From Naegleria gruberi (taxonomy: Eukaryota), in assembly GCA_000004985.1 (NCBI GenBank), contig GG738918.1: a stretch of 64,000 nucleotides of DNA. One strand, given 5' to 3'. Of this stretch, positions 2,913-28,238 are shown one piece after another; position 1 is the first letter of the stretch; each line of letters begins with the position of its first letter. Made by a program: the position numbers and the translations under genes. A model generated the notes under the pieces. It saw only the letters and a list, made by a program, of their open reading frames with translations. It made no database searches and was not told where the DNA came from.

Positions 2913-3503
2913 ATGAAACAACAAATTAATAATGTCAATTTGTTATTGATGATCATTGGTTGTTTATTGATTATGATAATGATTGCTGAACATGTCTCTT
3001 CTCAAAGAGTTATTCTCTCCATGACTTCCATCTCTCAAACACCATATCTTTACACTGGTTATTTCACACCTGATGTCAGAAATCAACATTGGAATTGGGT
3101 TGGATCTAATCTTCAAGGAATTACCAATCCATTTTATGGTGAATTATCAATTCCAATTCAAGGATTTGATCCAATCATTTATAGAGGTCATCTTTCTGCT
3201 AATACTAATTTTGTTTCTAATACTTTTCCTTTTGCATTGATGAGTGTTGCAATTACACCAAATTCTTTTAATGGAACATTCTCTATTGAAGGATCAATTC
3301 AATGTGGTGATAATGTTACTGGAGGAGGTGCACTTAGTGGTTTAAGATTTAAAGGAATTACTATAGATGGAAAAAGTGAAAATCATTCTGGAAATTGTTT
3401 TAATTATCAATGTCATTGTGCACAATGTCGTGATTCTGTTACTGTTGCCATGTCTGTTTGTTATCAATCTATTACTCCAAAACCATCATTTTTAGGAAAA
3501 TAA
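2913..3503 (+). CDS. secreted or type II membrane Cys-containing protein
   Basis: ATG at 2913 in an A-run context (aaaaaaaaATG). N-terminal hydrophobic signal/anchor (LLLMIIGCLLIMIMIA), several Cys and N-glycosylation-like sites. The ORF track starts further upstream at 2811, which is probably 5' UTR. Confidence 0.4.
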   Translation: MKQQINNVNLLLMIIGCLLIMIMIAEHVSSQRVILSMTSISQTPYLYTGYFTPDVRNQHWNWVGSNLQGITNPFYGELSIPIQGFDPIIYRGHLSANTNFVSNTFPFALMSVAITPNSFNGTFSIEGSIQCGDNVTGGGALSGLRFKGITIDGKSENHSGNCFNYQCHCAQCRDSVTVAMSVCYQSITPKPSFLGK

Positions 3504-3513
3504 ATTGTTTATT

Positions 3514-6204
3514 TTATCTATCAAAGCTTTTAATTTCCATATTTACTTTTTTATCCAAATTGGTAATTGCTTCTGATATAATTGTTTTTACTAAAAATGG
3601 TTCAAAATATCTACGCATTGTGTTACTATTATTTTTGAATATTACTGAAAAATTATTAATGATATTCTTGGCTTGATCCATTAGATTATTTGTTTTCAAA
3701 TATTGTGCTAAATGTGTACCAATTAAACTTTCCTTTTTAGGTGGTTGTAATGCCGTAATAGATGAAAAAATCAAAGCTCTATCAATCATTTCATCATCGA
3801 GTGAAAACCCACATCGTGAAGAATATCCATTCTGATCTATATAAATATTACTCTTATTTTCTTTAACTTCTAATATACATCTAATAAAATTATCATATAA
3901 AATACTATTTAGTAAATTATTCTTAAATTGTTGAGATTTTAAAAGAGTAAATTCTTGAATGGATGATATTGAAATTTCATTCAATGATTTTGGAATAGTT
4001 ATAAAACCACTTTCTATTCCAATTGGATAATATTTAATTTTACATGAATCATCTTCCATATTTGGAAAATTGTTATCAGTTGTATCATTAAATAATTTTG
4101 AAATTTCCATAAAATTATTAAATAATAATGAATTATGAACAGTTCTTTGATTTTTGTAGGTGAAAAAACGCATTATTATTTCCTCTCCATTACAAAGTTT
4201 AATTTCCAAATTTATAAAATTCACATTTCTACTAATTTGGTGAATTCCTTGTTTAATTTCTTTCATTGTAAATGGCATGAATATTTGATTTTCAATATTC
4301 AAATAATTTTGTTTCATATCATAAAAATAATCCAAAAATAAACATTGATTTCTAATAATTTCAATTTCATTCATATTCATCATTTTCACAAATTTCATTA
4401 ACACTAATTTACAAATAAGGTAATGAGATTCTGATTTGAGTAACCAAAATAATTGATTTCCAAATACTTTAGATTTTATACATCTAGTGATAAGATATTC
4501 TGATAACAATCCATTTTCATTCTCATATTTAATACATTGAATGAGAAACGGTAAAATATAAGAAAATATTTCGTCCTTAGTTTCGTCTAAATATTTGAGT
4601 AGTGTTAATTTTGAAAATATGCCAATTTTAGAAGAGAATAACGTGAATAGTTCCATCACATTATTTGGTTTCTTCCATTTTTCCATGATTTGATTAGCTC
4701 TAAATAGTACCATTGGAGTTTCGAATGAAATTCCAAGCAGAAATGGAACAAAATGTGAAGAATCATTTACATTCCACTTGTTATTTTCTAAAATAGTCTC
4801 CAATTTCAAATCATTTTCATCTTCAATTAAATTTGGTTTTCTATCTAAATAATACTTTACAATACAATCATGAGTAGGAAATTCAATTTCAAGAGAAAGT
4901 TCTGAATTTTTTGTATTTTGTAAAAGTTTAACATTTCCTTGAATTAATTCCAAATTTGAATCAAACACTGAACATTCAAAATAGTTGGGTTTCATAATCT
5001 CAATTCTTTTAAGAATTCCAGTCTCTAAATCTTCTCTATAACAAACAAGTGAAAATTTGATAGAATAGTCACATGAAAATTGTGAAATTTGAGTTTCGAA
5101 TATAATTTCTTCATTCCATTCGAGTGGTATTTCTATATTTTGGAGAGGAATGATTTTAGTGTCGTGAATTTCATTTTTCTTTTCATTTGAAATTATTGAA
5201 CATTCAATTGAAAAGGAAGTGAAATTTCCATATTCGAATAACAAATCCCTAAATGAAAGTCCATGAACTTGTTTTATCACAACACTCATTCTCTTATTAA
5301 AATCAAATGATGATGATGATACAATATTATTATCTATCAATTTTTCATTATTCATTTCAAATTTCTTTTCAAAAATTGAATCAAGAAATGAAATATTACT
5401 TTCAGTCAATTCTCTTTCATTTTCTAAAAGACAATTACAATTCACATAACTAATTTGATTATTATTGACAAGTCCACATAAAATATTTCTATCATTTCTT
5501 GATAATGTCTTGTTATATTTCATGTTTAAATATTTCAATTTAGGAAATGAACTTATAATTGGAATTACATTTCCATTTAGGTAATTATTAGATAGATCTA
5601 ATTTTGTCAAGTTATTACAATTGAATTTTGTAAATAATTGAATAAAATCTTTAGAATAAACTGAACAATCTGGAATTTCCAAATTAGTTAAACTTTCACA
5701 ATCACAAATATTCTCAATTAATTTGAATGAATTGGAAGTTTGAGATCTTAATTTTAAACTTTTCAATTTGAATGGTTTAAATTCTGTGTTGGGGTTTCTA
5801 AATTTCCAAATAGTATCACCTGAAATGGAAAGTTTTACCAAATTAGTCAATTCACATTTTAACAATTCTGAAAAGTTTTCTGTATTTCCATTTATAATAT
5901 TCAATTCTTCCAAATTATTAGAAATTCTTGAAATTTCTTTGAAATTTACAGTACTGTCTATTAGAGAAAGTGATTTCACTGTCAATGGAATTACATTACT
6001 ATTTATAGTAACTCCAACTAATTTCAGTTTTCTCAAATTAGTATAATCCAAATGATATAATTCTATTGTTGAATTGTTTTTACAGCAAATTACTAATGAA
6101 TAAATTTGATGTTTGATAGATTGACCAATTACTTCAACTGCTGAATTAAATTTTACATCAATTGCCAAATTGACCAAATTAGGTAATGTCATTCTACTAT
6201 TCAT
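3514..6204 (-). CDS. leucine-rich-repeat region plus C2-like, helical and PI3K/PI4K-like catalytic-domain-like C-terminal module; apparent pseudokinase
   Basis: Many LxxLxLxxN repeats in the first ~330 aa. Later, FGNQLFWLLKSE resembles the PIK helical/kinase boundary (F.FW.LK.E). KIKYYPIGIESGFITIPKSLNEISISSIQ matches the PI3K pattern L.MLPYGCLS.GD.GLIE.V..S.TI..IQ. Where the DRH catalytic loop and DFG are expected, the sequence reads ENKSN and SSRCGF, and the GDDLRQD box is absent. Confidence 0.55.
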   Translation of the reverse strand: MNSRMTLPNLVNLAIDVKFNSAVEVIGQSIKHQIYSLVICCKNNSTIELYHLDYTNLRKLKLVGVTINSNVIPLTVKSLSLIDSTVNFKEISRISNNLEELNIINGNTENFSELLKCELTNLVKLSISGDTIWKFRNPNTEFKPFKLKSLKLRSQTSNSFKLIENICDCESLTNLEIPDCSVYSKDFIQLFTKFNCNNLTKLDLSNNYLNGNVIPIISSFPKLKYLNMKYNKTLSRNDRNILCGLVNNNQISYVNCNCLLENERELTESNISFLDSIFEKKFEMNNEKLIDNNIVSSSSFDFNKRMSVVIKQVHGLSFRDLLFEYGNFTSFSIECSIISNEKKNEIHDTKIIPLQNIEIPLEWNEEIIFETQISQFSCDYSIKFSLVCYREDLETGILKRIEIMKPNYFECSVFDSNLELIQGNVKLLQNTKNSELSLEIEFPTHDCIVKYYLDRKPNLIEDENDLKLETILENNKWNVNDSSHFVPFLLGISFETPMVLFRANQIMEKWKKPNNVMELFTLFSSKIGIFSKLTLLKYLDETKDEIFSYILPFLIQCIKYENENGLLSEYLITRCIKSKVFGNQLFWLLKSESHYLICKLVLMKFVKMMNMNEIEIIRNQCLFLDYFYDMKQNYLNIENQIFMPFTMKEIKQGIHQISRNVNFINLEIKLCNGEEIIMRFFTYKNQRTVHNSLLFNNFMEISKLFNDTTDNNFPNMEDDSCKIKYYPIGIESGFITIPKSLNEISISSIQEFTLLKSQQFKNNLLNSILYDNFIRCILEVKENKSNIYIDQNGYSSRCGFSLDDEMIDRALIFSSITALQPPKKESLIGTHLAQYLKTNNLMDQAKNIINNFSVIFKNNSNTMRRYFEPFLVKTIISEAITNLDKKVNMEIKSFDR

Positions 6205-6207
6205 CTA

Positions 6208-6681
6208 TTCACTATATATTTTATCATCAATACTAAACAGTGATGAAATATCCAAAGATTTCAACTTGTAAAAATATGTAATAATAATATTTAATCCATA
6301 ATAATCCAATCCACTATTTTCTTTCAATGTTAAACTTTTTAAATTTTCATAAAATTTAAAATTTTTCATAATTTCCAAATCAGCATTTGAAAATGAACCT
6401 GTTAAACTTGAAATCCTATAAAACAATCTATTATTTTGAATAGCAGTTATAAAATTATTGATTGGATCACAATGATGATCTTTACGTGATGAAAATCTTG
6501 AAAATAATTTGTGTTTCTTTTTAATTTCAATTTCAAGTTTGGAAAAAGTTGATGCGAATTTCCACTTCTTACAAGTGTGAGAAATTATTTGGAGAATGAA
6601 TTTGGAGTGGAGAAAGGAAAAGATTTCAACCAACATTTCTGTTGGCAGGTTATTAATAATGAGAGAAGATGTTAGTGACAT
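6208..6681 (-). CDS. F-box domain N-terminal segment; the ORF ends at an in-frame TAG at 6205..6207 and is directly followed by the LRR/PI3K-like ORF
   Basis: N-terminus LPTEMLVEIFSFLHSKFILQIISHTCKKW is a cyclin-like F-box. Leucine-rich repeats (LKSLTLKEN..LKSLDISSLF) begin before the stop. The same frame continues after the single TAG. Confidence 0.6.
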
Positions 6682-7098
6682 TTTCTTTAATATTAAAACG
6701 TGATTTCATATCAATTTCAATTCCAATCATTTACCTAATAAAAATGATCAAATGGGTTTATATTACTCAAGTTAAGGTAATGAATGGCTACGAAGCCATT
6801 TATTTTCTGCGGACATAGATAATGATTACTGAGTTGTTGTCATCATTGGTACCAAATACATTGATGAAGATTTGAATGAATTGAACCTCCGGAGATTGGT
6901 TAAAGCCCTAAAGGTTATTGAATGATAATTTGATTAAAGTTAAATTATGCAATCAAGACTTTTAGTACTTGAGAAATTGATACACTCCAAAAAACTCTTG
7001 GTAGTCACCTTCTTTATTATATATTAGCTATTGGAATTGATTCGCAGTAGAGCTTCTTTTTGAAGTAGATTTATATTTCAGAAATTATGGTTGTTGAT

Positions 7099-7218
7099 GG
7101 CTACGGCCATATCACGATGAATGCACCTCATCCCGTCCGATTTGAGAAGTTAAGTATCGTCGAGCCACATCAGTACTGAGGTTGGAGACAACTTGGGAAC
7201 CTGTGGTGCTGTAGTCTT
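7099..7218 (+). rRNA. 5S ribosomal RNA gene
   Basis: GGCTACGGCCATATCACGATGAATGCACCTCATCCCGTCCGATTTGAGAAGTTAAGTATCGTCGAGCCACATCAGTACTGAGGTTGGAGACAACTTGGGAACCTGTGGTGCTGTAGTCT matches the conserved 5S blocks (ACGGCCATA, CATCCCGTxCGAT, AAGTACT, GGGAAC..GGTGCTGTA), is about 119 nt long, and is followed by a T-run. Confidence 0.85.
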
Positions 7219-7221
7219 TTT
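7217..7221 (+). terminator. RNA polymerase III T-run terminator of the 5S gene
   Basis: TTTTT immediately after ...GCTGTAGTC. Confidence 0.6.
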
Positions 7222-7246
7222 GATTTCATCCCTTGTTAATCAAACC
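7218..7246. repeat. left arm of a ~30-bp inverted repeat flanking the di-ubiquitin-like gene
   Basis: tttgatttcatcccttgttaatcaaacc. Its reverse complement recurs at 8107..8137 (ggtttttgattaacaaggggatgaaatcaaa) with about 27 of 29 positions matching. Confidence 0.6.
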
Positions 7247-7481
7247 ATTAAAACAACTTTTTTCAAAATCAATGAAGTTGCATTCATGGAGTAACATAGT
7301 TGCTCAATTATTACAAAATATGAACCAAATTTGTGTCCAGAAACAAAAATCAGGCCATGCAAGAATTTCTTTGCCGTCAAGAACTACTCTCTAAAAATAC
7401 ATACATCTTAAAACAGGTTAAAAAGAAAAGAATGTTTTGAATATAAGAAAAACAACAAGAAAAAACAAAACAACAATTATA

Positions 7482-7940
7482 ATGCAATTATTTGTCAAGA
7501 CACTCACTGGAAGAACTATCACTTTGGAAGTTGAATCTAATGATTCAATTGAAAATGTGAAAAGAAAGGTACAAGATAAGGAAGGAATTTCACCAGATCA
7601 ACAAAGACTCATCTTTGCTGGTAAACAATTGGAAGATGGCAGAACTATTAATGATTACAACATTCAAAAAGATTCAACACTTCATTTGGTATTGAGATTA
7701 AGAGGAGGAATGCAACTCTTCGTAAAAACCTTAACTGGAAAGACCATTACTATCGAAATGGAATCAAACGACACTGTTGAGAATATGAAACAAAAGATAT
7801 TTGATAAGGAAGGTATTCCTTCAGATCAACAACGTTTGATTTATGCCGGTAAACAATTAGAAGATGGCAGAACTATTAATGATTACAATCTTCAAAAGGA
7901 TTCAACTGTGCATTTAGTATTGAGATTGAGAGGAGGTTAA
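7482..7940 (+). CDS. tandem di-ubiquitin-like protein: two divergent ubiquitin-fold repeats, each ending in RLRGG
   Basis: ATG at 7482 in an A-rich context. Repeat 1 is [76 protein letters not shown]. Repeat 2 is [76 protein letters not shown]. They differ from canonical ubiquitin at about 11 and 16 of 76 positions. K48, K63 and the GG tail are retained. The ORF track's upstream start at 7437 is probably leader. Confidence 0.85.
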
Positions 7941-8106
7941 ACAACATAGTATCGTAGATTCTCTCAATTATTGTAAATAAATTATACTTTGAATAGTGAA
8001 ATATTGATGTCGTATGGATAAATTGATCACGAGGTTTGCTTGTTAATGAAACTTATTTTAATTACAACTGCAGAAGGAATTTTGAAGCTAGAAATTGATT
8101 GATTTT

Positions 8107-8137
8107 GGTTTTTGATTAACAAGGGGATGAAATCAAA
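8107..8137. repeat. right arm of the inverted repeat (partner of 7218..7246)
   Basis: See left arm. The arms are about 860 bp apart and enclose the 7482..7940 CDS. Confidence 0.6.
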
Positions 8138-8469
8138 CGTACGCAAGATGAATTCGTATCATAATTGAAATCTGCATAAATCTACATCAAGAATGAAGGA
8201 CAAATCTCAGCCAAAACATCCGATCCATTCCAATTTATTAAGCAAAAACTCCATCAACAATTGTTGAGCTCAATCAACAAGTGTCAGTAGACAATAACCA
8301 TAAAGTGGATATTTACAAATGTACTTGATTTGGCGGTCTTATTTCATTGACGGACCATTTTAAAAACAGCGTCGAACCTTTATGCATAACGTTTCAACTC
8401 AGAATATTGGCTTCATCAATAAGAAGCGCAACAATAGCGTATAATAGTCGACAATAATTATCAAACAAA

Positions 8470-10869
8470 ATGAGTCAACAAGAAACATCATCTGATATGA
8501 TTGATAATAATAATCAAACGACTGGTGGTGGAGATGAAGCAATGATTGAATCTCCAGTACTCACCTCTGAAATTAATGTTCAACAACCAACACAACAAGA
8601 AGAATCACAACAACAACAACAACAAACAAGCCTTGTTGCCGAAGATGAAGCACAAAACAATACCTCATCTTCATCTTCATCGAATACAACAAATGAAGAG
8701 AATGTTCCTTCCTCTAATAACCATACAAATACTGATAACAATGTTCAAAATGTTCAATCAACAAGTGTAAATACAAAGAAGGAACAAGAAATTGATACTA
8801 CAAAACCAAAAGGAGAATATATCATCGGAGGAGCTGATGATGATGAAGAAGAAGTTTATGTTCCTAAATATCAGAGTGATTCTCCACCTTTACAACTTGA
8901 ATGGAAAGATCTTAGTTACAAAGTTAAACAACCAATTGATGCTCCTGCTCATTTGAGTGTTCCTCAAAAGATTGGATTTAAACTGAAGAATATGTTCAAA
9001 AAGAAGGAAAAGGTTATTTTGCACGAAATGTCTGGATTTGTAAGTCCTGGAAGTACTCTTGCTATTATGGTATGTTTTTAATAGTTGAACTTTGTAATTG
9101 AAATATTGTGACAATATGAATCATAATTTTCATATGATGAATATGATCATTGTGATATAATAGGGTCCTAGTGGTGCTGGTAAAACATCTCTCTGTAAGT
9201 ATTATCATGATTTCAATCCATTCTAAACATCATATGTATTTAAGTGAATATTCTTGCTCAACGTGTTAAGGAAACATCTGGTGATATCACTGTAAATGGT
9301 GTCAAGATTAGTAGTAGTTTCCGTTCTTTGTCTGCATTCGTTCAACAAGATGACGTTCTTATGGGTAATTTGAGTGTTAGAGAAACATTACGTTATGCAG
9401 CTCTTTTACGTTTACCAAAGACAATTTCATGGAAGGAAAAGATGGAACGTGTTGAATCAATTATGGATGAATTGGGTCTCTTAAAGAGTGCTAATACTAA
9501 AGTTGGTACACCTGGTTTAACTAAGGGTATTTCAGGAGGTGAAAGAAAACGTTTGAGTATTGCCATTGAATTATTGACACAACCAAGTATTTTATTCTTG
9601 GATGAACCTACAAGTGGTTTGGATGCTGCTACAGCTTACAGTGTCATGAAAACAATTATCAAAATTTCAAAGGGTGGTAGAGCTGTCATTTTAACTATCC
9701 ATCAACCTCGTTCCAATATTTATGAACTTTTTGATAAGTTACTTCTTTTAGCTCGTGGTAAGATTGCTTATTTCGGTCCAGCTAAAGATGCCACTACATA
9801 TTTCGGAAATGTTGGTTATCCATGTCCAAAACAATATAACCCAGCTGATCACTTTATTGATCTAATTACTGAATCTACTAGTGACACTGGTGAAGGTAAA
9901 AAATTGAAACAAGAAGATAATGAACGTATTGAAAAGATTCTTACAAATTATAATCACACTGAAGTTGCTCCATCAGTTGATCACTTGAAGACTGATATTA
10001 AGAAAGCCAAGTATAATGCCAATTGGTTTACTCAATTCTTCGTTGTGATGGCAAGAGCATTTGTTAATATTTTACGTGACAAGATTTTAACATTTTCAAG
10101 ATTATTCCAGAATTTAGCGATGGCTATTCTAGTCGGTTTGATCTTTTTACAAATTGGTTATGATCAGCAATCTGTTCAAGATAGAAATGGTGTTCTCTTC
10201 TTTTGTTTAGTTAACCAATCTATGAATTCCATTTTTGGTTCATTAACAGTTTTCCTTTTAGAAGAAAAGAAAGTATTTTTAAGAGAACGAGGTTCTAAAA
10301 TGTACAAAGTGAGTGCCTATTATCTTGGTAGAAGTATCAGTGAATTGCCAAATATTATCTTCTTCCCAATCCTATTTGGTACAATTGTTTATTGGATGTG
10401 TAATTTGAATCCAGGTGCAGATCGATTCTTTGTTTTCCTTTTAATTTTAGTTTCAATGGCTTTAGCTGCTCAAGCTCTTGGTATGGTGTTAGCTGTATGT
10501 GCACCTTCAATGGAATTTGCAACTGCTATTGCACCTGTATTGTTAACAGTTTTGATGTTGTTTGGTGGTTTGTACATGAATGTTGATAATATTCCACCAT
10601 ACTTTATTTGGATTTATTGGTTATCTATTTTCCACTTTGGTTATGAAGCATTGGTATTGAATGAATTTGGTGGTGCTACTTTTGAATGTCCACCATCTCC
10701 ATCTGCATGTACCTATAGAACTGGTGAAGATGTTATTAGTAGAAATGCTATGAATAAGCCATACTCAAACATTTGGTTCAATCTTGGTTTATTGTGGGCC
10801 TTCTTTTTAGTTTATCGTTTTATGGCCTACCTCATTCTCGTATTTGTTGTCAAACCAAAGAAAGGATAA
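8470..10869 (+). CDS. ABC transporter, G-family (White-type) half-transporter; exons 8470..9069, 9164..9194, 9245..10869
   Basis: Introns 9070..9163 (GTATGT..TAG) and 9195..9244 (GTAAGT..AAG). The 31-nt mini-exon rebuilds the Walker A box GPSGAGKTSLLNILAQR across the splice. ABC signature ISGGERKRLSIAIELLTQPSILFLDEPTSGLD. Six TM helices at the C-terminus (NBD-TMD order typical of ABCG). Confidence 0.85.
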
Positions 10870-11036: not shown

Positions 11037-12248
11037 ATGAGAAAACGATCGAGTAGTGGGGGCGGAAGTTCTTCTCCTCAAAGTTTTACTTTCTGTGGTG
11101 GTGGTGATATTGAGAGCAGTTGTAAAACACCATCAATTTTAAAACCACTTGAAATTAAAACAAAGATAAAATCATCATTATCATATAATTATTCACCATC
11201 ACCTACTAGTGATGAATTAAGTAAAGATATGATAAATATTAAACAATTTTCACCCGATGATATTATAATAATAGATAAAATTGCATCAGGTGGATTTGCA
11301 GAAGTTTTTAAAATTCAAATTCATTCAACTATTTATGCAGGAAAGAGAATGTTAAAAAGTAGATCACAAATACAAAGAAATGTTGATAAATTTGCTAATG
11401 AATTAGTCAAGATGAATAGGATTTTTCAATTAGGATGTTCAAGAGTATTAAAACTTGTTGGTTATTGTTTTGATAAGGAAAATCAAAATTATTGGATTGT
11501 AACTGAATTTATCAATGTTGGAGATTTATATTCAATTATTCATTGTAAAGAACAAACTTTAAAGAGTCATCATTATGGATTAGAACGTATTAGAAATGAA
11601 TATTCAAAATTAATTGAATTAATTCATAATGATATGAATGTTAAAATTAAATTAGCTCTAGATATTGCTAAATGTATTGATGAACTACATTCATTAACAC
11701 GTTATGCTCATCTAGATGTGAAATCATTGAATATTCTTGTAGATGAAAATTTACAAATAAGAGTTGGAGATTGGTGTGATGCTAAACTAGTAGATGAATC
11801 AAGAGAACATTATCTCACTCCATTTCAACCACATGGTACAATATATTGGATGGCTCCTGAAATTGTTAAACAAAATGTATTTTGTCAAAAATCAGATATT
11901 TATGCTTTATCAATAGTTTTTACTGAATTATTAATTTTAGGTAAACCTTATCCTGGATTAAATGTTTTAGATGTTAAGGAAAAATTAGAGAGACCTATCA
12001 TTTCTAATCCAGCCAATAATAATAATACTGATAATACTAATTCTGATAATCAAATCAATAATACTGATAATATACCATATCGTATGAATATTATTGAAAT
12101 ATTGGAACAAAAGGGTTGTGATATAACTAATCAATGTAGAAATTTCATATCACTCATTGAAGATATGTGGAAAGAGGATGTTTCAGAAAGACTCTCTTCT
12201 AAACAAGTTGTAGAAAGATTATCTAATTTATTAGAAAGTGATGAATGA
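11037..12248 (+). CDS. protein kinase (TKL-like)
   Basis: Gly-loop IASGGFAEVFK, VAIK-like AGKRM, catalytic loop HLDVKSLNILVD, DWCDAK (DFG position), and GTIYWMAPE activation-segment motif. Confidence 0.75.
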   Translation: MRKRSSSGGGSSSPQSFTFCGGGDIESSCKTPSILKPLEIKTKIKSSLSYNYSPSPTSDELSKDMINIKQFSPDDIIIIDKIASGGFAEVFKIQIHSTIYAGKRMLKSRSQIQRNVDKFANELVKMNRIFQLGCSRVLKLVGYCFDKENQNYWIVTEFINVGDLYSIIHCKEQTLKSHHYGLERIRNEYSKLIELIHNDMNVKIKLALDIAKCIDELHSLTRYAHLDVKSLNILVDENLQIRVGDWCDAKLVDESREHYLTPFQPHGTIYWMAPEIVKQNVFCQKSDIYALSIVFTELLILGKPYPGLNVLDVKEKLERPIISNPANNNNTDNTNSDNQINNTDNIPYRMNIIEILEQKGCDITNQCRNFISLIEDMWKEDVSERLSSKQVVERLSNLLESDE

Positions 12249-13814: not shown

Positions 13815-16246
13815 TTAGTTGTTGCGTTGCTTCTTTTCTAAAACAACCCAATCCCATTCATAATCCAAAGAATATTTTTCTCTAATAAATAAATTTAAGA
13901 AAAGGTTTCTAATATAGGTATAGTCTGGTTCTTGGCAAAATTTCAGAGCTCTAGTATAATTTAAATAAGTGGCAAATTCAACAGGGAAACCTCTACAAAG
14001 ATTTACAATCTTGATATTCTTTTTCTTTTGATAAATATTGTTATAGTGGTCTTCCTTTGTGTTACCTGTCAAACCTTGCCAAGGAAGAGTTCCTTTCAAG
14101 AAATACAATAAAACATAACCAAGAGACTCAAGATCATCTCTTCTCGATTGTTCGTATCCTTTGTGATTATTTAAACTTGCATAACGAGCAGTACCTGTCA
14201 AATGTTTGTCTTTTCTTAAAGTAATATGACCCTTGTCTGTCATGTACATTTTTGATAACCCAAAATCAATGAGATATACTATATTTTCACTACCTGGGGA
14301 AGGCAAAGAAGCATTGGTTTGATAAGGAGCATTAAGAAGGTTTAACAACCCTGTAGGGCTATTACCAGGAACCTTTCTTCCCATCAAAAAGTTATCTGGT
14401 TTAATGTCACGGTGCACGAAATTTCTTTTGTGTGTATATTCAATTCTCTGGATCATTTGATCAGCTAACATAAGAACTGTCTTTAAGCTGAATTTACGAC
14501 TACATTTTTTGAATAAGCTTTCCAAGCTTTGACCAAGTAGTTCAAGAACCATAATATTGTATACTCCCTCAGTTCCGAACCAAAACACACGAGGTATACC
14601 ATGACAAATACTCATTATCTGATTATTGGATGAATTGGTTGTGCTATTACTACTAGTAGTACTATTTGGTTGTGCATTCATAAGGTATGAAATTACTTTT
14701 GCTTCATAAATTAATTGTTGTTTTCCACTATTAGCTTGGCCATTTTGTGGAGTTGGTAGTGTTTCTAATTTGACTGCATAATATTCTTCTCGTTGTTCTA
14801 TATTTTGGCACAAGAATACTTCACCAAATGCACCATTACCAAGCTTGCTCATCAATCTATACTTACTACCAACAATCAAACCTACTGGATAATTACTGTT
14901 AGATGAAGAAGGTTGTTGTGTCGTTTGAGTTACTGGTTGTTGTGGTGGATTGTTAGTAGGTTGAACTTGTGTTACTGGTTGTTGTGGAGGAGGCATTTGG
15001 GTTTGATTATTTGGCATTGAAGAAGGATAAGCAGTATTCTGATAAGCATGTGCTTGATTTCCATTATATGCAGGTGAATAACTTCTAGTGTTAATGTTAT
15101 TTTGATATGATCTTTGTACTATTTGTTCATCTGCAACAACTATTGGACAATTAATTGTAGATCCTGGTTGTTGTGGAGGCAATAAAGAATTGCTATTTAC
15201 TCGAGATAGAGAAGTTCCTTTTCCACTGCTAGAAACATAATTTGGAATATTTGAGTAATAGTAATTATTTTGATTAACATTATTTGGATAATTATACATC
15301 AAATTTTGTTGGTGTTGAGAACTTCCTGTTGATGTTGGAATTTGATTACTTAAACTACTCGATGGTCTTTGATATTGATTTGATGAATTTACGGCTAATT
15401 GATTATTTGTTCCTGTATATAAAAGATCATAATAACTATTGGTATTATAACCTCTTTGAGTTTGTTTTGATGTTGGAGTGATGGCTTGTTGACTATCTGT
15501 TTGTCTAAATGTTGTTAATAAAGAATCAACATATGCTGAACCTGAGCCTTCTGGTGGTTGGTGTTGAGGTTGTTGAGTAATGTATGGAGTTGAATCTACA
15601 TGTTGTTGTTGTGGATTGGTTGGACTACGGCTCGTATTTGCATGATAATTTGTTGTATTATAATATGAAGGTGAAGTATAAGAAGGATTTCCTGGAGTAC
15701 CTGTAGTTGTAGTTCCAACCATTCTACGTTGATTATTAATTGAAGAAGAAGTTGGTGTAGTTGGCGTGTTGTAATTTACAGAGGGAAGATAGTTACTACC
15801 TTGTTGAAACATGATTGATGATAAACTATTATTATTGTGCATTACTGGCGAATAAGAAGACATTGAAGGCATGTTAAGAGAATTTGATGGGTTAATTGTA
15901 GAGTATGGAAGAGTATAATGTTGTTGTTTGTTTGATGTCGTCTGGTTATTATAATACTAAATAATATTCATATTATGAACAATTAATTTCTTTTTCAATA
16001 ACTAATAATACATACATTTGTGTTTGGATTTGAATAGGGATAATAGAGCAAATTAGAACGGTCTGTTGGTTGAGGTGTTATTTCTCTCAAATTATTACCA
16101 GCCTCTTCTATTTTGTTTAATACCTTTCCATCATTATGCATGAGGCCTGTAGGTGTTGAATCAATTCCTACTACTCTGGAAGGTGCTGTTTTGTTGGTGA
16201 GAGGTGTTTTATCATCCTTCGCAGGCGTTGAATAAAGATAACTCAT
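13815..16246 (-). CDS. casein kinase I family protein kinase with a ~400-aa N-terminal Q/N/P/S/T/Y-rich low-complexity extension; exons 16016..16246 and 13815..15956
   Basis: 59-nt GTATGT..TTTAG intron (15957..16015) joins the 83-aa ORF in frame to the 685-aa ORF. The kinase domain is close to CK1 delta/epsilon over YRLMSKLGNGAFGEV, HRDIKPDNFLMG, LIDFGLSK, GTARYASLNNHKGYEQSRRDDLESLGYVLLYF. Confidence 0.8.
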
Positions 16247-17054
16247 GATGATTAGTTGAGGTTGTTGTTATTTTGGTGGGGGTGAAGAAGGCTGAGTTGT
16301 CTTTAAATTTTGTATTTGTTTTCCAACAGTAGGAGAGAATAAGGAAGTAGTCTGGTCAGTGGTAATATTTCAAAGGTGCGTCTTGTTCTAATAATATTCC
16401 TTTTTGCCCTCTCTAATAATTATTATTAACTAGTGGTAGTAGTTGGAGAGGATTGAAGGTGGAGGATTGAAGAGAGGAAGCACAAACGATTCTTAAATGT
16501 GTGTGCTACTTCTTTGTTTTTTGTTGATGAAAAGCCAATCTTGGATGGTGATGAAGGTTGACGACTGCGCAGGCTGACTCTACACGGAAGACGCAAAAGA
16601 TTCGATGAGAGAATTTTGTGTTGTTCTAGTGGTGTGATGAGGTTATTATTATTATTCCTTTTCTCTGCAACGTGTTATGTGGTGAAAGGAGAGAGATGTT
16701 TTTTCTTTTGAGCAACCACACAATACAAAGAAGGAAGAACAAATTGCTTTTGATCTTTGAATGAAAAAATTAAATTGATATAATTTGGGTTGACTTTTTT
16801 TGTTGATCAGGATGAAATGGTGAACAATAACTCCTTTCGAGTTACGCAATGCAGTGACAAGTTGTTGGGCAGCCAATATTACGTGTTGATTCTTTGTCCA
16901 GGTTGAACTTGCACTTTCTGTGAAGGAGATGAATGAAGTCCCTGTTTTCTGAGAAAGAATCATTATTTAACTTGTTAAACTCCTAAAATGAGAATTCTTA
17001 GAATTGACTAGCTTCTAATCACCTTCGTTTTTGTACAGGTTTGAGGTAAAAGAT

Positions 17055-19949
17055 TTATTGCTTCTTTGCTCTTTGTTCGAATACTTTGCTGAGTTCATTT
17101 GTGCTTGAGACAGCTTTGACTGGTTTAAAGAGACCTGACTTCTTTTTCTTTTGTTGTTGAATAATTTGTTCTGATGAGGATAAAGCTTGTTTAAGCTTTT
17201 CAATTTCATCAACTAAAACTTGTTTCTTTTGCTTTTGTTTTTCCTTTTCTTCTTGGGTTGCACTCTTTTGAGCTCTCAAAGTATCCAATTCATTTTGAAG
17301 CTCAATAATTCTGTTATTTTGGAGTTCAATTTTCTTATTGGCTGATTGAAGTTTGGATCTTTCACTTTGAATTTGTTGTCTTGAGTGATTTGCTTCTGTT
17401 TGAAGTTTCTCCTTCTCATCTTGAATCTTTTCCAATCTGTTTCTCAATTCGAACAAATCATTTGCCCAGTTTCTTCCCAACTTTTGCTGCTGTTGGTTGG
17501 TTGGAGTGCTTGGTTTGGCGGAGCCTTTCTCCATCTCCATTTGCAATTCCGCTAATTCTTGCTTAAGATTTTCTTTTTGGAGTGTTAATTGCTTCAAGTC
17601 CTTCTCCTTTGATTTGATTTGCTCCTCGTATTCTTCTTTGATTTTTTCATAGGATTCGGTCTTGTCCTCCATTAATTCCTCTAATGCTTTCACATCTTTC
17701 TTTAATTGTTTGATTTCATCTTTGATTTTATCGGTATCTTCCTCAACATCTTGAAGTTCTCCTTCAAGCTCTTCAGTTTTATCCTTCTCAGCATCGAGAT
17801 CATCTTCGGCTCTATCAAGTTTCTTATTAAGATCTTTCTCAATAGTTGCAGAATTTTTCTTTTCTTCTTTAAGCTCTGCCTTTAATTTTTCTATTAACTT
17901 ATCCTTCTTACTTTCAACTGATGCAGCCGAGTCTTTCACCTTTTTCACTTTTGTAGTGTATTCGTCAATTATGAAATCTTCCAAATCTTCATCAATTTCT
18001 GTACTTCCCTTTTTGGTCAACTCTGCCTTCTTAACTTGAGTTTTCAACATGACAATTTCTTCCTCTAGACTAAGATTTTCTTTTTCCAACTTCTTTAATT
18101 TATCTTTCAATTCATCAACTGAGTCTTCAGCAGCATCTAATTGCCCAAGATACTCATTAAGTTCAGTTTCTATATCTACACATTCGTCTTCAAGATTGAA
18201 TACTTCTTTTTCAAGCTTCTTTACCTTCTGAGAAAGTTTCTTGTTTTCTTTTTCTAATCTTGAAATTTCTCTCTTATTAAATTCCTCTACACTTCCTAAT
18301 TCAGCTTCAACGCTTGCGGTTTTTCTTTTCTCATCTTCGTGTTTGCATTCTAAATCAAAAATTCTTTCATTGAGTTGAGTGTTCAACTTTCTGTACATCT
18401 TATTACTCTCTGTCAAACTTTCAATGGATGAAATGGTTTTGGCTCTAGCCTCACTGTCAGAGATATTTTGAGCCATTTCAATCAGCTGGATTGCATTATG
18501 TTTGGCATCTTCCTTTGCATTTTCTAATTCCTTCATCAAATCTAATCTCTTCTTTTCTTCATCAAGGATTTGATCTTTGAGTGCTTTGACTTCCAAAGAG
18601 AGTTCATCAACTTTAAACTTGCATTCATTTCTAATATCTTCTTTTTGTTTTTCTGACGATTCAATTTTTTCATTTACAATGTCAAGCTCATCTTCAAGTT
18701 TTTCATTTGTTTCTTTCAGCTTTTTGATAGAACTCTTAAGGGTAGTATTTTCATTTGTAAGTTCCTTGATGGTTTGTTTGTAAGAAGATGTTTCTTCCTT
18801 ATATTTACATTCCAATTCATCCAACTTGTGAGCCAATTCGGCTTTTGAAAGAGAGTTATCGCCATCTTTGCTTGATTTGAGTATTGCTATTTGTTCCTCA
18901 AGTTTTTTAATGATTTGCATTAATTCTGTTGGGCTTTTGTAAGTGTTTTGTTTTGCTACACACTTGATGTTCTTCATTTTCAATCCGAACTTCAGACTTG
19001 AAACAGATTCTTCTCCACACAAAGGAGTTGGTGAAAGATTACAAATAAGGGTAGCCTTAGAGTTTCCCCCAAGAGTTTCTTTCAAAATTTTTGTTAGCTT
19101 CGAATCTTCAAATGGTATATCAGACTTCTTATCGAGGATGGAATCAACACAAACTCCTAGATTTGATAAAGACAATACAAGATTCTTTTGTTCGTCCTCC
19201 ACTGTTCTCTTTTCACTTCCTGCCATATCAACGAATAACAATTGACCTACAGTCGAAGAACTATCCTTGCTAAGACTTTCAACTCTAATGATGAAGATAG
19301 AATGTGATTGAGCAGGATCTTGATTTGTTCTTGTTGACAGTGAGAGCCTATTATTGTTTCCTATTTTGATTATATCAAGCATTTCATCTTCGGTTGTGAC
19401 ATATTCTTCTGTTAATCTATCAACGTAAACTCCTCTCTTTGGGGAATCAATTATAGTTAAATCTCTCTTTTCCTTATCAAATAAATCATTGATTTTTTCA
19501 TTATAAATTTCGAGGAAGGAACAACCAATCTTATATTCAATATTCTCATCTCCACTTCTAATAATTTCAAACATTTCCTTTGCAGTTCTTGGAATTAATC
19601 CAAATAATTCTTCCTTGTCAAGTGATCCAGTCATTGTATATGTTTTTCCTGCTCCTGTCTGTCCGTATGCCATCATTGTTACATTAAAGCCTTTAATAAC
19701 ATCTTTTACAAGTGGTTTACACACGTCTTCATATAATTCCTCCTGTTTTGTATCGTTCTTAAACACTTTATCAACAATGAAGGAATTATTTCCAATGGCT
19801 TGATTATCAGTTGATACCTTAAAAGTATGGTCTCCTTCAAAATCGTATGTTAATTTGTATGAAGTTTTCTCTTGTTTTTCCTTAGTTGTTATTGGTCTAA
19901 AACGAGCAACAACTCTAACGTTTTGCACTTGCCTCAAATTCGCAGACAT
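17055..19949 (-). CDS. kinesin heavy-chain-like motor protein: N-terminal motor domain and ~650-aa coiled-coil tail
   Basis: ATG at 19949 (MSANLRQ). P-loop GQTGAGKTYTM, switch II FVDMAGSEK, then a long E/K/L-rich heptad tail. The ORF track's earlier start is a TTG. Confidence 0.85.
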   Translation of the reverse strand: MSANLRQVQNVRVVARFRPITTKEKQEKTSYKLTYDFEGDHTFKVSTDNQAIGNNSFIVDKVFKNDTKQEELYEDVCKPLVKDVIKGFNVTMMAYGQTGAGKTYTMTGSLDKEELFGLIPRTAKEMFEIIRSGDENIEYKIGCSFLEIYNEKINDLFDKEKRDLTIIDSPKRGVYVDRLTEEYVTTEDEMLDIIKIGNNNRLSLSTRTNQDPAQSHSIFIIRVESLSKDSSSTVGQLLFVDMAGSEKRTVEDEQKNLVLSLSNLGVCVDSILDKKSDIPFEDSKLTKILKETLGGNSKATLICNLSPTPLCGEESVSSLKFGLKMKNIKCVAKQNTYKSPTELMQIIKKLEEQIAILKSSKDGDNSLSKAELAHKLDELECKYKEETSSYKQTIKELTNENTTLKSSIKKLKETNEKLEDELDIVNEKIESSEKQKEDIRNECKFKVDELSLEVKALKDQILDEEKKRLDLMKELENAKEDAKHNAIQLIEMAQNISDSEARAKTISSIESLTESNKMYRKLNTQLNERIFDLECKHEDEKRKTASVEAELGSVEEFNKREISRLEKENKKLSQKVKKLEKEVFNLEDECVDIETELNEYLGQLDAAEDSVDELKDKLKKLEKENLSLEEEIVMLKTQVKKAELTKKGSTEIDEDLEDFIIDEYTTKVKKVKDSAASVESKKDKLIEKLKAELKEEKKNSATIEKDLNKKLDRAEDDLDAEKDKTEELEGELQDVEEDTDKIKDEIKQLKKDVKALEELMEDKTESYEKIKEEYEEQIKSKEKDLKQLTLQKENLKQELAELQMEMEKGSAKPSTPTNQQQQKLGRNWANDLFELRNRLEKIQDEKEKLQTEANHSRQQIQSERSKLQSANKKIELQNNRIIELQNELDTLRAQKSATQEEKEKQKQKKQVLVDEIEKLKQALSSSEQIIQQQKKKKSGLFKPVKAVSSTNELSKVFEQRAKKQ

Positions 19950-20299
19950 CCTTCCGATTAGCCTTTGATACAGTACTAAAATCCTCAATGCAACAAAATC
20001 CTCAGTAAATTTTTCGAATGATTTTTTTTAAAGGTGCTGCCCTCAATTGCCGCTGCTTTTGGATACCAACTTCCGATTCTGAAAAGTTGTATTCAAAGGT
20101 CCAAACTCTAGCATTAGTTTCTCAATCAGAATCATCAAGAATTGAAAAAGTTTGGATAATTCAATACGTTGAGAGGAGTGCTCTGAACATTAGTCACCTT
20201 AGTACGGAACTTGGAAATCAGTCTGTGATATTAAAGAAAACATGAAGAATGAACTTGGAAACAACTTGAAAAAATTAGCTACATCTACATCAATTATCT

Positions 20300-21730
20300 A
20301 TGAACCAACCTCTCCCATCATCTTTACTGGAGAATTTAAATAATCCTGATAACAAGGATGGTTTAAAAACTGTTCCCGATCATGAGAAGAGAGATTATTC
20401 ATCGGTTAAAATTCAAGACATGTTCTATAATAATTGTGTTCCTCTATTTAGGAGTCCTTATTTACATGAATTATATAGTGGACAGGCAGATGATGAATTT
20501 ATTGATTTGGATCAACAACAGGAAGCTGAGATTTCTCAACAACATCAACAAAATTATTTTCATCAATTAAATTCATTCAGAGATTATGAAATTGAATATG
20601 ATGTGATTGAACAGGCAAAGATTGCTGTTTGCATTCCTAACAGAGAGTGGAATGGTGGATTATTAATTCATTGTCATGGACATAGAGCTAAGGGAATTCC
20701 TCTTCAGGCAGATTTGAATCATGATAACATGCCAAACACTTTCAGAGAATTGATTAGCCAAGGCTGGATTGTTTCAATGACTTCATATAGAAGAGAAGGA
20801 ATAATATTGAAAGATGCAATTTTGGATGTTAATAATTTGAGAAATTATGTGGAGGAAAAACATGGACAAATTAAATGTTGTATTCTGGAAGGAAGATCAA
20901 TGGGAGGAGCAATCGTGACATTTATTAGTGAACTCCATCCACATTTATATGATGGAGCTGTTTGTATTGGTGCTGCACTGAGAGTAGACCAGAAAGAAGA
21001 ACCTCTTCCTCATCTTGTTTTACAAAACACTCCTAAATTTCCAATTATTGTAAGTGAAGTTGCAACTTTAAGGTTCTAATGTTTATAGTATTTGACAAAT
21101 ATTAGTGAATTAGGAGAACCTTCGAACTATATTGAAAGGGCAAAGAATAATTCCCTTAAAGAACAAGATATCATAACCCCTAGCTTATGGACAGTCTTTA
21201 GAGAGGGACATAATTTAGTTACAGAGCTCGAGAGAATGTCCGCATTCCAAGCCCTAATTTCTTGGATACGATTCAAAAGTAATATAACAATGAAAGTCAA
21301 TGAGGCTTGTACACTTCCAGTAGCTATTCCAAACTCTGAAGTAGAATTTACTGACTCGGACCCATCTTCAAAAGAAGGAGCTTGGGGTAAAGTCAACCAA
21401 TTATACATCTATGGATCATTTTGTATCAATTTCACAGAAAAAGACTTTGAGAAATTAGGAATTACACAAGGAAAATACTTTACTTTCAACATTTTGACAA
21501 AACAACAGGGTGTCAAGACAGTTAGTGCATCATTTGGATCTTTCCCATTTATTAAGCAAGCAACTGAAGTTGAATGGATTGCATTTGTTAATCCAGTTGA
21601 TAATTACATTGTATTGCATATTAATTCTTACAAATTTACAAACGAATCTAAAAAGATGGGAATTTCCCTTAATGATGCTATTTTTGTTGAAAAGGTCAAA
21701 CCGCTGCCTAAAAGGAAAAATAAGAATTAA
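20300..21730 (+). CDS. alpha/beta-hydrolase-fold protein; exons 20300..21049 and 21089..21730
   Basis: 39-nt GTAAGT..TATAG intron 21050..21088 joins the two ORFs in frame. Nucleophile-elbow motif GRSMGG. No closer family assignment. Confidence 0.55.
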
Positions 21731-21885: not shown

Positions 21886-23403
21886 ATGCCAAAAGAGAAG
21901 GGGAGAGGTAATGGTGTGGAGAGTAAAGTTGCATGTTTGGCCTGTCGTCGTGCTCATAAAAAATGTGATAGAAAATTACCTTCATGTGCTAGATGTTCTT
22001 CAAAGGGATGGTCATGTAATTATGATCAAATAGATCGGAGGTTTAAACCAGTTGAGGTAATGAATGAATTGAATAATGATGTTGGAAATTCAAATGTTGA
22101 GTTTAATCATCAGGATGGAATGAATATTGTTGACAATCAGGTGGTGGAGGTGAATGAAAATTGGATTCAACATTCAATGACGGAGGAAACTATTAGAATA
22201 TATAAGGAGGTTATCTATGTGGGAGTTCCTTGCTTCTCAAATGAAGATTATGCCAACATGTTGAGGATGTCTGTGAAGGAAATGAATGAAACTAGGAAGG
22301 ATATTCTTGCATTGCTATTGTCAATTCAGTGCTTGTGTGAGAATATGTGGGGATTTCTCCCAGCTGCTCAGAGAACTGCTGAAAAATCAAGGGATGTACT
22401 AAGGATTGTTTATGAGGATTTTGGAAATCCGTTTGTTGCTTCTTCATTCCTTAATTTGTCATCGTTTTATTCTGTCATTGGAAATGTAGAGATGGCAAAA
22501 GGATACTTGGCAATAATAGAACATTTTTGCTCAAAACTAGAACAGGATTCTACCAGACACGTATTAATAGAAAAGTATAATTGTAAGGTTGATCCAATTT
22601 CTTTCAAAGCTTTTTCAGCATTAGTTGAGATCAACTGTTCTGATTCATACCCTATACCAGATATTGTTTCCCTGAAAAAGTTATATGGTGCCATTTCAGA
22701 TGTTAGCCAGTTAGTTTACAATTTAGATTCTTCACTTGAAAAGAGGATTGAGGGTATGACGTTATTTGTTGCTATGGCAATTAATGAAACATCAGAAAGA
22801 CCTAAATCAGAACTTTCAACCCATATTCTCGATATATGTCTCAAAATATTTGTTAATGGATTGAATATTGTTAGGGCAATTATTAATGGATCCAAATATT
22901 CAGAACCTAGTTTATTGGACGAGAATACCAAAATAATGGAATATTATGCCTATGAAATTACAAAGTTATGTCAAGATCCAGCGTCAGTGGTAGTGCCACC
23001 ATATGTCACTTCTTTTATAGTCACAGCCACAAAGTTAAATTTTGAAATTTTCAAATCTATTGTTAAGGGTGATAGAAAAAATAATCAAAATACGATTATT
23101 ATGAGAGAAGATGGAAGTATTGAACCTTCTATGGAAACAGTTGACTATCATAGTGTTATGATGATTGAATTGAATACTTTGAAACAATTGAGTAAGAGAT
23201 ATCCGTATGTTCACAAAATATTTGAAGAGGTGAATGATTTTATCATGAATAATGGAAAAGAATCAATGATTAGAAATACTAACAACAACAACAACGACAT
23301 TCAACATTTTATTAATCTGCTATATGAAGAACCTTCAGATATTTACAGTGAAATGAAAAAATTTATAGATAATTTGAAAAAGACAACAACCACTAATCTA
23401 TAA
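21886..23403 (+). CDS. Zn(II)2Cys6 binuclear-cluster (fungal GAL4-type) DNA-binding protein
   Basis: N-terminal ACLACRRAHKKCDRKLPSCARCSSKGWSC fits CX2CX6CX5-9CX2CX6-8C followed by a basic linker. Confidence 0.7.
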   Translation: MPKEKGRGNGVESKVACLACRRAHKKCDRKLPSCARCSSKGWSCNYDQIDRRFKPVEVMNELNNDVGNSNVEFNHQDGMNIVDNQVVEVNENWIQHSMTEETIRIYKEVIYVGVPCFSNEDYANMLRMSVKEMNETRKDILALLLSIQCLCENMWGFLPAAQRTAEKSRDVLRIVYEDFGNPFVASSFLNLSSFYSVIGNVEMAKGYLAIIEHFCSKLEQDSTRHVLIEKYNCKVDPISFKAFSALVEINCSDSYPIPDIVSLKKLYGAISDVSQLVYNLDSSLEKRIEGMTLFVAMAINETSERPKSELSTHILDICLKIFVNGLNIVRAIINGSKYSEPSLLDENTKIMEYYAYEITKLCQDPASVVVPPYVTSFIVTATKLNFEIFKSIVKGDRKNNQNTIIMREDGSIEPSMETVDYHSVMMIELNTLKQLSKRYPYVHKIFEEVNDFIMNNGKESMIRNTNNNNNDIQHFINLLYEEPSDIYSEMKKFIDNLKKTTTTNL

Positions 23404-26876: not shown

Positions 26877-28238
26877 ATGGGTGAAGTGATTCATGTACAA
26901 GTTGGAGGGTGTGGCAATCATATTGGTTATCAATTTTATGAAAGAATTGCCAAACATGAACATTCAATTCTTCCCAATGGTGAAAAAAGCCTAACTCGTA
27001 ATCATGAAAATATTTACACTGATATTGATGAAGAAAATTACTATACAAATGTATTCTTTGAAGAGAGTAAGAGTGGTCGATGGTCTCCGAGGGCTGTTTT
27101 AGCAGATTTGGAGCCTTATTCCATAGATCAAATACAACAATTAGAATATGGAAGAATATTTAAGAGCGAATATAATGCAATTTATCAGTATGGTGCTGGA
27201 GGAAATTGGGCAAAAGGGCACTATACGATTGGAGCTGAATGTGTGGATAATGTTATGGAGGTAGTGAGGAAACAAGCTGAAAATTGTGGGAACTTACAAG
27301 GATTTCAATTGATGCATTCGTTGGGAGGAGGATCAGGATCAGGTTGGGGTACTCTGGTGATATCTAAACTGAGAGAGGAGTATCCTGATAAGATTGTTTC
27401 TAGTTGTTCTGTTTTTCCTTCTTTGAAAGCATCATCTACAAATCCTGTTGAGGCCTATAATTGTGTTTTGGCTTTTCACCAATTGATTGAGAATACAGAT
27501 TTCGTATCATGTTTTGATAATGAAGCTCTGATTGAAATACAATCAAAATTGAATCTAACCAATGAAGGTTTTAGTGCAATTAATAGAATAATTGCAAAGG
27601 TTATGTCTGATGTAACCTGTTCATTTCGGTTTCCTTCCCATTTAGGGTATAATTTAAGAAAGCTTGCCACCAATTTGATACCTTTTCCTAGACTCCACTT
27701 TGCAACAATTTCACACACTCCAATTAGTGCTGATAGTAATAATTCCTCAAAGAATATATCAGAACTATTCCAAAATTTGACATCTCCAAATAATGTCATG
27801 TGTGGCTGTGATCCTAGAAGTGGTCGGTATATGGCTGCCATTGCTTTATTCAGAGGCTCTATGACATTGAAAGAAGTGAATGATGTTGCTTCATCTGTTT
27901 CCAATAAGAATTCTTCTAATTGGGTTGATTGGATGCCACCCAATTTAAAATCAAATGTTTGTAAGAAGAAATCAGGTGATTTTGAGTCGGCTACTCTCAT
28001 TGCAAACTCCACATCTATTCGATTCTTGCTCACCAATATTGAAAATCGATTCGATAACTTATTCAAAAGGAAAGCGTATCTTCACAACTTGTGTTATGAA
28101 GGAATGGATGAAATGGAATTTTCAGAGGCACAACATAATCTTAATGATATCATAACTGAATACAAGTGTTACGGAGACGAAATTCTTGACGATTTCGATG
28201 ATAGTAACCTTGATCTTTCTTCTAAGGACTTGATATAA
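26877..28238 (+). CDS. divergent beta-tubulin-like protein (tubulin/FtsZ GTPase fold)
   Basis: Collinear with beta-tubulin end to end. MGEVIHVQVGGCGNHIG (T1 loop, canonical GQCGNQIG). GAGGNWAKGHYTIGAE. LGGGSGSGWGTLVISKLREEYPD (canonical GGGTGSG). NEALIEIQ, LRKLATNLIPFPRLHF, AYLHNLCYEGMDEMEFSEAQHNLNDIITEY. Roughly half of positions are conserved relative to canonical beta-tubulin. Confidence 0.8.
   Translation: MGEVIHVQVGGCGNHIGYQFYERIAKHEHSILPNGEKSLTRNHENIYTDIDEENYYTNVFFEESKSGRWSPRAVLADLEPYSIDQIQQLEYGRIFKSEYNAIYQYGAGGNWAKGHYTIGAECVDNVMEVVRKQAENCGNLQGFQLMHSLGGGSGSGWGTLVISKLREEYPDKIVSSCSVFPSLKASSTNPVEAYNCVLAFHQLIENTDFVSCFDNEALIEIQSKLNLTNEGFSAINRIIAKVMSDVTCSFRFPSHLGYNLRKLATNLIPFPRLHFATISHTPISADSNNSSKNISELFQNLTSPNNVMCGCDPRSGRYMAAIALFRGSMTLKEVNDVASSVSNKNSSNWVDWMPPNLKSNVCKKKSGDFESATLIANSTSIRFLLTNIENRFDNLFKRKAYLHNLCYEGMDEMEFSEAQHNLNDIITEYKCYGDEILDDFDDSNLDLSSKDLI

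Follow-up and report, generated by a model that had tools for sequence, protein, structure and literature searches.

A solitary 5S rRNA gene beside a divergent di-ubiquitin gene in the dispersed chromosomal 5S family of Naegleria gruberi

Background

The closest described system is the 5S rRNA gene family of Naegleria gruberi itself, for which 279 putative genes unlinked to the rDNA unit have been catalogued (Feng et al. 2012, PLoS One, PMC3369914). This catalogue covers the same object as the present work, although the flanks, the relics and the inverted repeat described below are not part of that paper. An internal control region (ICR), an upstream TATA box and T-run terminators were reported for these genes, and their arrangement is labelled 'tandem: yes' in Table 1 of the same publication (PMC3369914). 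The remaining rRNA genes of Naegleria, coding for 5.8S, 18S and 28S rRNA, are carried by a 14-kb circular extrachromosomal element with 3,000-5,000 copies, on which a 5S gene is not described (PMC5805870). Since the rDNA plasmid is without a 5S gene, the 5S genes of Naegleria must be chromosomal. The plasmid-based account in PMC5805870 holds for 18S, 5.8S and 28S rRNA and overlooks the approximately 280 chromosomal 5S genes. Given 3,000-5,000 plasmid copies, the large-rRNA cistrons outnumber the 5S genes more than 10-fold.

Dispersed 5S families are also known from Schizosaccharomyces pombe and Neurospora crassa. Another such family, that of Yarrowia lipolytica, comprises 108 dispersed 5S genes and eight relics, and 48 of the 108 genes are part of tRNA-5S dicistrons that are expressed without TFIIIA (PMC2566860). 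Like N. gruberi, Y. lipolytica has at least about 100 full-length 5S genes located amid protein genes and unlinked to the rDNA. Unlike in these dicistrons, no tRNA gene precedes the N. gruberi 5S gene studied here (ARAGORN, Rfam), and the two organisms belong to unrelated lineages, the fungi and the Heterolobosea.

Two further systems share single properties with Naegleria. The large rRNA genes of Dictyostelium discoideum are also located on a multicopy extrachromosomal element. However, the 5S genes of D. discoideum travel with this element, whereas those of Naegleria are chromosomal and the 14-kb circle carries the 18S, 5.8S and 28S genes only. The 5S genes of Tetrahymena pyriformis are reported to be linked to ubiquitin genes, and the likeness is that of a 5S gene in a spacer beside a ubiquitin-repeat gene. 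In N. gruberi, this linkage concerns a single locus.

A complete 5S rRNA gene and its neighbours

A complete 5S rRNA gene of 119 nt is located at 7099-7217 on the plus strand of the window, which denotes the whole 64-kb stretch of DNA analysed here. The match to RF00001 (Rfam cmscan) reached 102.1 bits (E 3e-21), far above the gathering score of 38, and covered model positions 1-120 of 120, so that the gene is not truncated. A T5 run (TTTTT) read from the sequence at 7217-7221 (+) represents the Pol III terminator, as runs of at least four T terminate Pol III. The first T of this run at 7217 is also the final base of the 5S RNA. The initial annotation had reported a complete 5S gene with a T5 terminator at 7099-7221, which is borne out by the full-length match; since the T run overlaps the end of the RNA, this interval corresponds to the 5S gene plus its terminator.

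The secondary structure was predicted with RNAalifold from the window 5S and eight related environmental (metagenome) 5S sequences. These nine sequences share a predicted three-arm fold (helices I-V). Compensatory changes occur in 15 of its 39 pairs, and the window 5S breaks none of the 39. The sequence at 7099-7217 is a genuine intact 5S rRNA gene. The gene does not look like a 5S-derived SINE, as it spans the entire 5S model and stops at a terminator of its own. Within the 64 kb, this gene is the sole Rfam match at the gathering threshold, and tRNA genes were found neither with ARAGORN nor with Rfam.

The 5S gene lies in an 800-bp spacer between two divergently transcribed ORFs. On one side, a Pol II gene with an F-box domain at 6205-6681 on the minus strand (Pfam F-box-like, E 3e-7) is transcribed away from the 5S gene. 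On the other side, a divergent di-ubiquitin gene at 7482-7940 on the plus strand (Pfam PF00240 twice, E 4e-60) encodes 152 aa with two head-to-tail units. The description as a stand-alone chromosomal 5S gene amid Pol II genes is accurate. Identity to canonical ubiquitin, which is nearly invariant, is only 85.5% for one unit and 78.9% for the other. Instead of a standard polyubiquitin gene, the ORF at 7482-7940 may represent a ubiquitin-like gene that is diverging. Its protein forms a singleton cluster at 90% identity. Compared with each other, the DNA sequences of the two units show 78% identity. The ORF terminates in GG without an extra residue.

Other ORFs of the window are described here as side observations. 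An 896-aa ORF at 3514-6204 (-) immediately follows the F-box ORF in the same orientation, with only a stop codon between them, and both may belong to one gene. The only relative of the 896-aa ORF at E<=1e-3 is an N. gruberi paralogue with 44% identity and a PI3K accessory-domain match; an orthologue in other Naegleria species was not found at this threshold, and the ORF may represent a fast-evolving lineage-specific family. A further ORF at 21886-23403 (+) encodes 505 aa with an N-terminal Zn(2)-Cys(6) binuclear cluster (PF00172, E 5e-9), a DNA-binding domain usually considered characteristic of fungi but present here in a heterolobosean.

For an ABC-transporter gene in the neighbourhood, there is an orthologue with 90% identity in N. 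fowleri and one with 78% identity in Willaertia magna. At both orthologue loci, a 5S gene, the di-ubiquitin gene or other shared neighbours were not found within 10 kb on either side. Synteny with these two species is uninformative on the age of an insertion. Since the 5S and ubiquitin genes are absent from the compared ABC-transporter loci, nothing in these sequences would indicate a conserved 5S-ubiquitin unit. A cluster of five minus-strand tRNA genes occupies about 5.4 kb (15006-20394) of the W. magna contig L002, downstream of its ABC-transporter orthologue; the 64 kb from N. gruberi are without tRNA genes.

Source of the DNA

The source organism was determined from the protein-coding genes of the window. 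An ORF at 33716-35173 (-) encoding the NEDD8-activating enzyme (UBA3) is 100% identical to the N. gruberi protein, followed by N. lovaniensis with 88% and Willaertia magna with 81% identity as the next best matches. Exact matches to N. gruberi proteins were also found for the di-ubiquitin ORF (XP_002670147.1, annotated as 'ubiquitin'), a kinase ORF at 11037-12248 (XP_002670149.1) and a beta-tubulin ORF at 26877-28238 (XP_002670151.1); these three RefSeq proteins are encoded on a single contig of 222,118 bp. Because these ORFs exactly match N. gruberi proteins, the window is assigned, by sequence identity, to the nuclear DNA of N. gruberi NEG-M (Heterolobosea, Discoba).

This assignment contradicts the initial annotation, in which a dictyostelid lineage with dispersed 5S genes was proposed. 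The proposal had some basis, as the window has about 31% G+C and closely spaced ORFs with hardly any introns, which resembles social amoebae, and its premise that the 5S genes of D. discoideum are extrachromosomal agrees with the literature (PMC5911963). However, the identity of the UBA3 protein and the three exact RefSeq matches speak for Naegleria. The related possibility that the contig is part of an rDNA palindrome conflicts with the lack of SSU, LSU and 5.8S rRNA matches in the 64 kb (Rfam) and with the presence of roughly 30 ordinary protein-coding genes. It is therefore considered extremely improbable that the DNA stems from a dictyostelid with dispersed 5S genes or from an rDNA palindrome.

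The dispersed 5S family of N. gruberi

The window 5S is already known and was published in the 2012 catalogue, where it is listed as entry R33622 at scaffold_74:7102-7218 (Table S1, PMC3369914). This entry coincides with 7099-7217 of the window. Because of this match, the window apparently starts at the beginning of scaffold_74 and appears to represent its first 64 kb. A tandem 5S array is not seen at this locus in the 2010 assembly, as there is one copy in 64 kb and the next listed copy on scaffold_74 is located at 72,041, just beyond the window (Table S1, PMC3369914).

The coordinates in Table S1 (PMC3369914) were re-analysed for the whole family. The 279 copies are spread over 117 scaffolds, and most are full length, with at least 110 nt in 264 of the 279 copies and exactly 117 nt in 235. 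Neighbouring copies on a scaffold have a median distance of 33.9 kb, only one gap is shorter than 1 kb and 22 are shorter than 3 kb, and 200 of the 279 copies are separated from every other listed copy by more than 10 kb; these spacing figures rest on the 2010 assembly, in which tandem arrays may be collapsed. According to the coordinates of Table S1, the family is dispersed apart from a small number of loose clusters, in conflict with the 'tandem' label given in the same publication. This dispersed organisation of the N. gruberi 5S genes seems never to have been stated explicitly before.

There are many full-length copies at unrelated loci beside protein genes, as expected for a dispersed family. 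Since the median spacing is about 34 kb and 200 of the 279 copies are isolated, a solitary 5S gene is the normal state, and its location beside protein genes is the rule in N. gruberi. The initial annotation had offered either a lineage with dispersed 5S genes or an unusual dispersed copy as explanations for the solitary gene. The dispersed lineage itself was a correct suggestion, the dictyostelid identity attached to it was not, and the notion of an unusual copy does not fit a gene that is one among 279 catalogued loci. Overall, it is very likely that the locus is one of the approximately 280 mostly singly scattered nuclear 5S genes of N. gruberi and is transcribed by Pol III.

Environmental relatives

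Metagenome contigs were scanned with a 31-nt stretch covering helix III and loop C of the 5S gene. This pattern was matched by 13 metagenome contigs, all of which also have an RF00001 match, and a viral collection contained no matches to the 5S loop C pattern. Only one of the 13 contigs (L007) is Naegleria-like. Its 5S gene differs from the window 5S at two of 119 positions, and L007 was therefore attributed to a Naegleria-like organism. The 5S gene of L007 is solitary as well and lies at a distance of 165 bp from a divergently oriented ORF of 361 aa. The sequences on either side of it bear no relation to the flanks of the window 5S. The inverted-repeat motif of the window is absent from this one closely related locus that was compared, which speaks against an association of every 5S copy with the repeat.

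In the other twelve contigs (L003-L006, L008-L014 (VFQM/VFQO) and L015), the 31-nt helix III and loop C sequence of Naegleria recurs without any change. Ten of them carry a full-length 5S gene with 27-33 differing positions compared to the window, many of them compensatory. These copies are each located in different flanking DNA and are often followed by TTTTACT. The twelve contigs are attributed to at least one other eukaryote that also has dispersed 5S genes. In addition, a 2.3-kb metagenome contig (L016; ENA ERZ929261, PRJEB11402) carries an ABC-transporter fragment that is 100% identical to window positions 9244-10869. Due to this identity, DNA identical to that of N. gruberi is present in the ERZ929261 sample.

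Promoter elements and sequence variants

Putative promoter elements were located in and upstream of the window 5S. A TATA-like element (TTTATATTT) was read from the sequence at 7070-7078 (+), corresponding to -29 to -21 from the first RNA base, and its counterpart in L007 (AAATTATAG) is located at about -27 to -18. We take the region at 7148-7195 (+) to be the internal control region, judging by its position in a gapless alignment with the Xenopus somatic 5S sequence. Within this region, box A presumably corresponds to about 7148-7162, the intermediate element to about 7165-7170 and box C to about 7178-7195, as predicted by homology. The putative box A agrees with the Xenopus ICR at 10 of 15 positions and the putative box C at 12 of 18. 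According to this arrangement, RNA polymerase III would transcribe the window 5S from a type-1 internal control region, the TATA-like element at -29 to -21 would probably assist transcription, and transcription would stop at the T5 run at 7217-7221. The type-1 mechanism is assumed here rather than shown, since a homologue of TFIIIA was not detected in N. gruberi with BLAST (Feng et al. 2012, PMC3369914).

Two positions distinguish the window 5S from its relatives. Position 24 is T instead of A and position 57 is T instead of C when compared to L007 and ten further full-length relatives. The former lies in an unpaired loop. The latter is located within the box A region and converts the G21-C57 pair to a G-U wobble. 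In Table S1 (PMC3369914), the window copy has a similarity score of 0.7417, compared to a modal value of 0.75, and the same score is shared by several dozen other loci.

These differences could mean that the window 5S is a silent variant or a young pseudogene whose promoter is weakened by the C-to-T change in box A. In favour of this, T24 and T57 are found in the window copy only among the 12 full-length sequences, and the Table S1 score is below the modal value. However, both changes are tolerable, as one affects an unpaired position and the other leaves G21 and U57 still pairing. Moreover, the Rfam score is the same as in the relatives, the terminator and the TATA-like element are intact, and a score common to several dozen loci is not what a lone decaying copy would show. 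A silent gene is thus quite unlikely. Judged by its sequence, the window 5S would be a mild variant and is probably functional.

An inverted repeat interrupted by the 5S gene

The initial annotation had noted an inverted repeat at 7218-8137 that abuts the 5S gene. This repeat is real and extends further than was claimed. Its core at 7219-7244 is identical to the reverse-oriented core at 8111-8137 in 26 of 27 nt with one indel. The left copy of the core, a 26-nt motif (TTTGATTTCATCCCTTGTTAATCAAA) that follows the 5S gene, can be read as a potential hairpin with the stem TTTGATT / AATCAAA. Together with a weaker similarity that continues to about 7270 and 8078, respectively, the core forms the inner part of the left arm at 7219-7270 (+). 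The match of this part to the opposite arm has a score of 27, which was reached by none of 3652 null windows and by no shuffle. The outer part of the left arm is the 46-nt upstream region of the 5S gene at 7053-7098 (+), which matches the reverse complement of 8160-8198 with a score of 17.5, a value reached by two of 3448 null windows. The right arm at 8078-8198 (-) is without a 5S gene; the position taken up by GTTG and the 5S gene in the left arm is occupied here by a filler of 23 nt (ATACGAATTCATCTTGCGTACGT). The di-ubiquitin gene is enclosed between the two arms.

After removal of 7099-7219 and one TTGAT, the left arm is colinear with the reverse complement of 8078-8198. The alignment of the arms without the 5S gene has a score of 36.5, compared to a maximum of 26 among 1772 null windows. 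Since the arms are colinear once the 5S gene is removed, the inverted repeat, with a length of about 120 nt, is interrupted by the 5S gene in one of its arms. The removed piece of 121 nt, consisting of the 5S gene plus TT, is bracketed by two direct copies of the 5-bp sequence TTGAT, read from the sequence at 7094-7098 (+) and 7220-7224 (+). This bracket may be a target-site duplication or may have arisen by chance.

Further copies of the repeat arm were not found in the 64-kb window. A TIR transposon or MITE is not supported as an explanation for the repeat cassette, as there is no direct repeat outside of 7053 and 8198. Likewise, a multicopy TIR transposon finds no support, since the window contains no additional arm copy and the protein encoded between the arms forms a singleton cluster at 90% identity.

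A possible relic of a further 5S unit is located at 6750-6800 (+), 313 bp upstream of the 5S gene. In direct orientation, it repeats an upstream-like stretch followed by the first 14 nt of the 5S gene (GGCTACGAAGCCAT, with the pattern GGCTACG..GCCAT). The similarity between 6750-6800 and 7063-7111 has a score of 20.5, which was reached by one of 3548 null windows. Other readings of these short segments were rejected. A whole decayed 5S gene at 6750-6800 is not supported, as nothing beyond the first 14 nt was detected (p ~0.12). The filler ATACGAATTCATCTTGCGTACGT as a collapsed 5S gene yielded a best local score of 7, which is not significant, and the relic and the right-arm filler, which by eye could pass for one mini-sequence, show no significant similarity (p 0.4-0.55). 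A permissive Rfam scan of 6000-9500 found no partial 5S and only sub-threshold snoRNA/miRNA noise.

Origin of the window copy

One possible origin is an insertion, in which an inverted repeat of about 120 nt already flanked the di-ubiquitin gene and the 5S gene entered its left arm with duplication of TTGAT; the right arm would then be an approximate empty site. The colinearity of the arms after removal of the 5S piece and one TTGAT, with a score well above the null maximum, agrees with this origin, as does the position of TTGAT directly before the 5S gene and directly after the 5S gene plus TT. In addition, the presumed insert is as long as a 5S transcript made by Pol III (5S plus UU). Some dispersal mechanism is required for about 280 near-identical copies at unrelated sites. 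However, the right arm falls short of a clean empty site, since it has 23 unrelated nucleotides in place of GTTG, and a 5-bp repeat may occur by chance in DNA with 70% A+T. The relic at 6750-6800 includes the non-transcribed upstream region in addition to 14 nt of the 5S gene, which points to copying at the DNA level rather than the RNA level, and neither a reverse transcriptase nor a mobile element is evident nearby. Such an insertion is therefore regarded as doubtful. As a route of arrival, it would be compatible with the window 5S being a working gene.

Alternatively, two head-in 5S units may have flanked the di-ubiquitin gene, each consisting of about 46 nt of upstream sequence, the gene and about 50 nt of downstream sequence. 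The right unit would have lost its gene body, leaving the filler of about 23 nt, and 6750-6800 would be a third, decayed unit. This origin could explain why both the upstream and the downstream flank of the 5S gene recur in inverted order at 8078-8198, with the filler exactly at the expected position of the gene, and why a relic composed of upstream sequence and 5' end lies a short distance upstream. Local clusters with a spacing of 1-3 kb exist elsewhere in the genome, as seen in the 22 gaps below 3 kb, and deleted relics accompany the dispersed 5S genes of Yarrowia lipolytica (PMC2566860). Nevertheless, the filler has no significant similarity to 5S, its best local score being the 7 given above, and the same holds for the relic when compared to the right arm (p 0.4-0.55). 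The L007 flanks, which are unrelated to those of the window, lend no support to a conserved larger unit, and simple decay does not explain why the 26/27 core is far better conserved than the remainder of the arms. The loss of a second unit is thus possible and is put forward tentatively.

A more specific form of the insertion would be that the locus presents a filled site and an empty site next to each other, as the footprint of an RNA-mediated, retroposition-like spread of functional 5S genes. This is considered rather unlikely. If it were true, a retroposition-like spread would explain the approximately 280 scattered and near-identical copies, each of which brings its own internal promoter.

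Conclusions

It is worth recording that the 'tandem' summary of PMC3369914 and the dispersed coordinates in its own table disagree. The position of the 5S gene inside one arm of an inverted repeat provides a starting point for weighing insertion against deletion across the genome. The main import of this analysis is a correction: by its protein-coding genes, the DNA is assigned to Naegleria gruberi and not to a dictyostelid, and a lone 5S rRNA gene is normal in this organism and was already tabulated.
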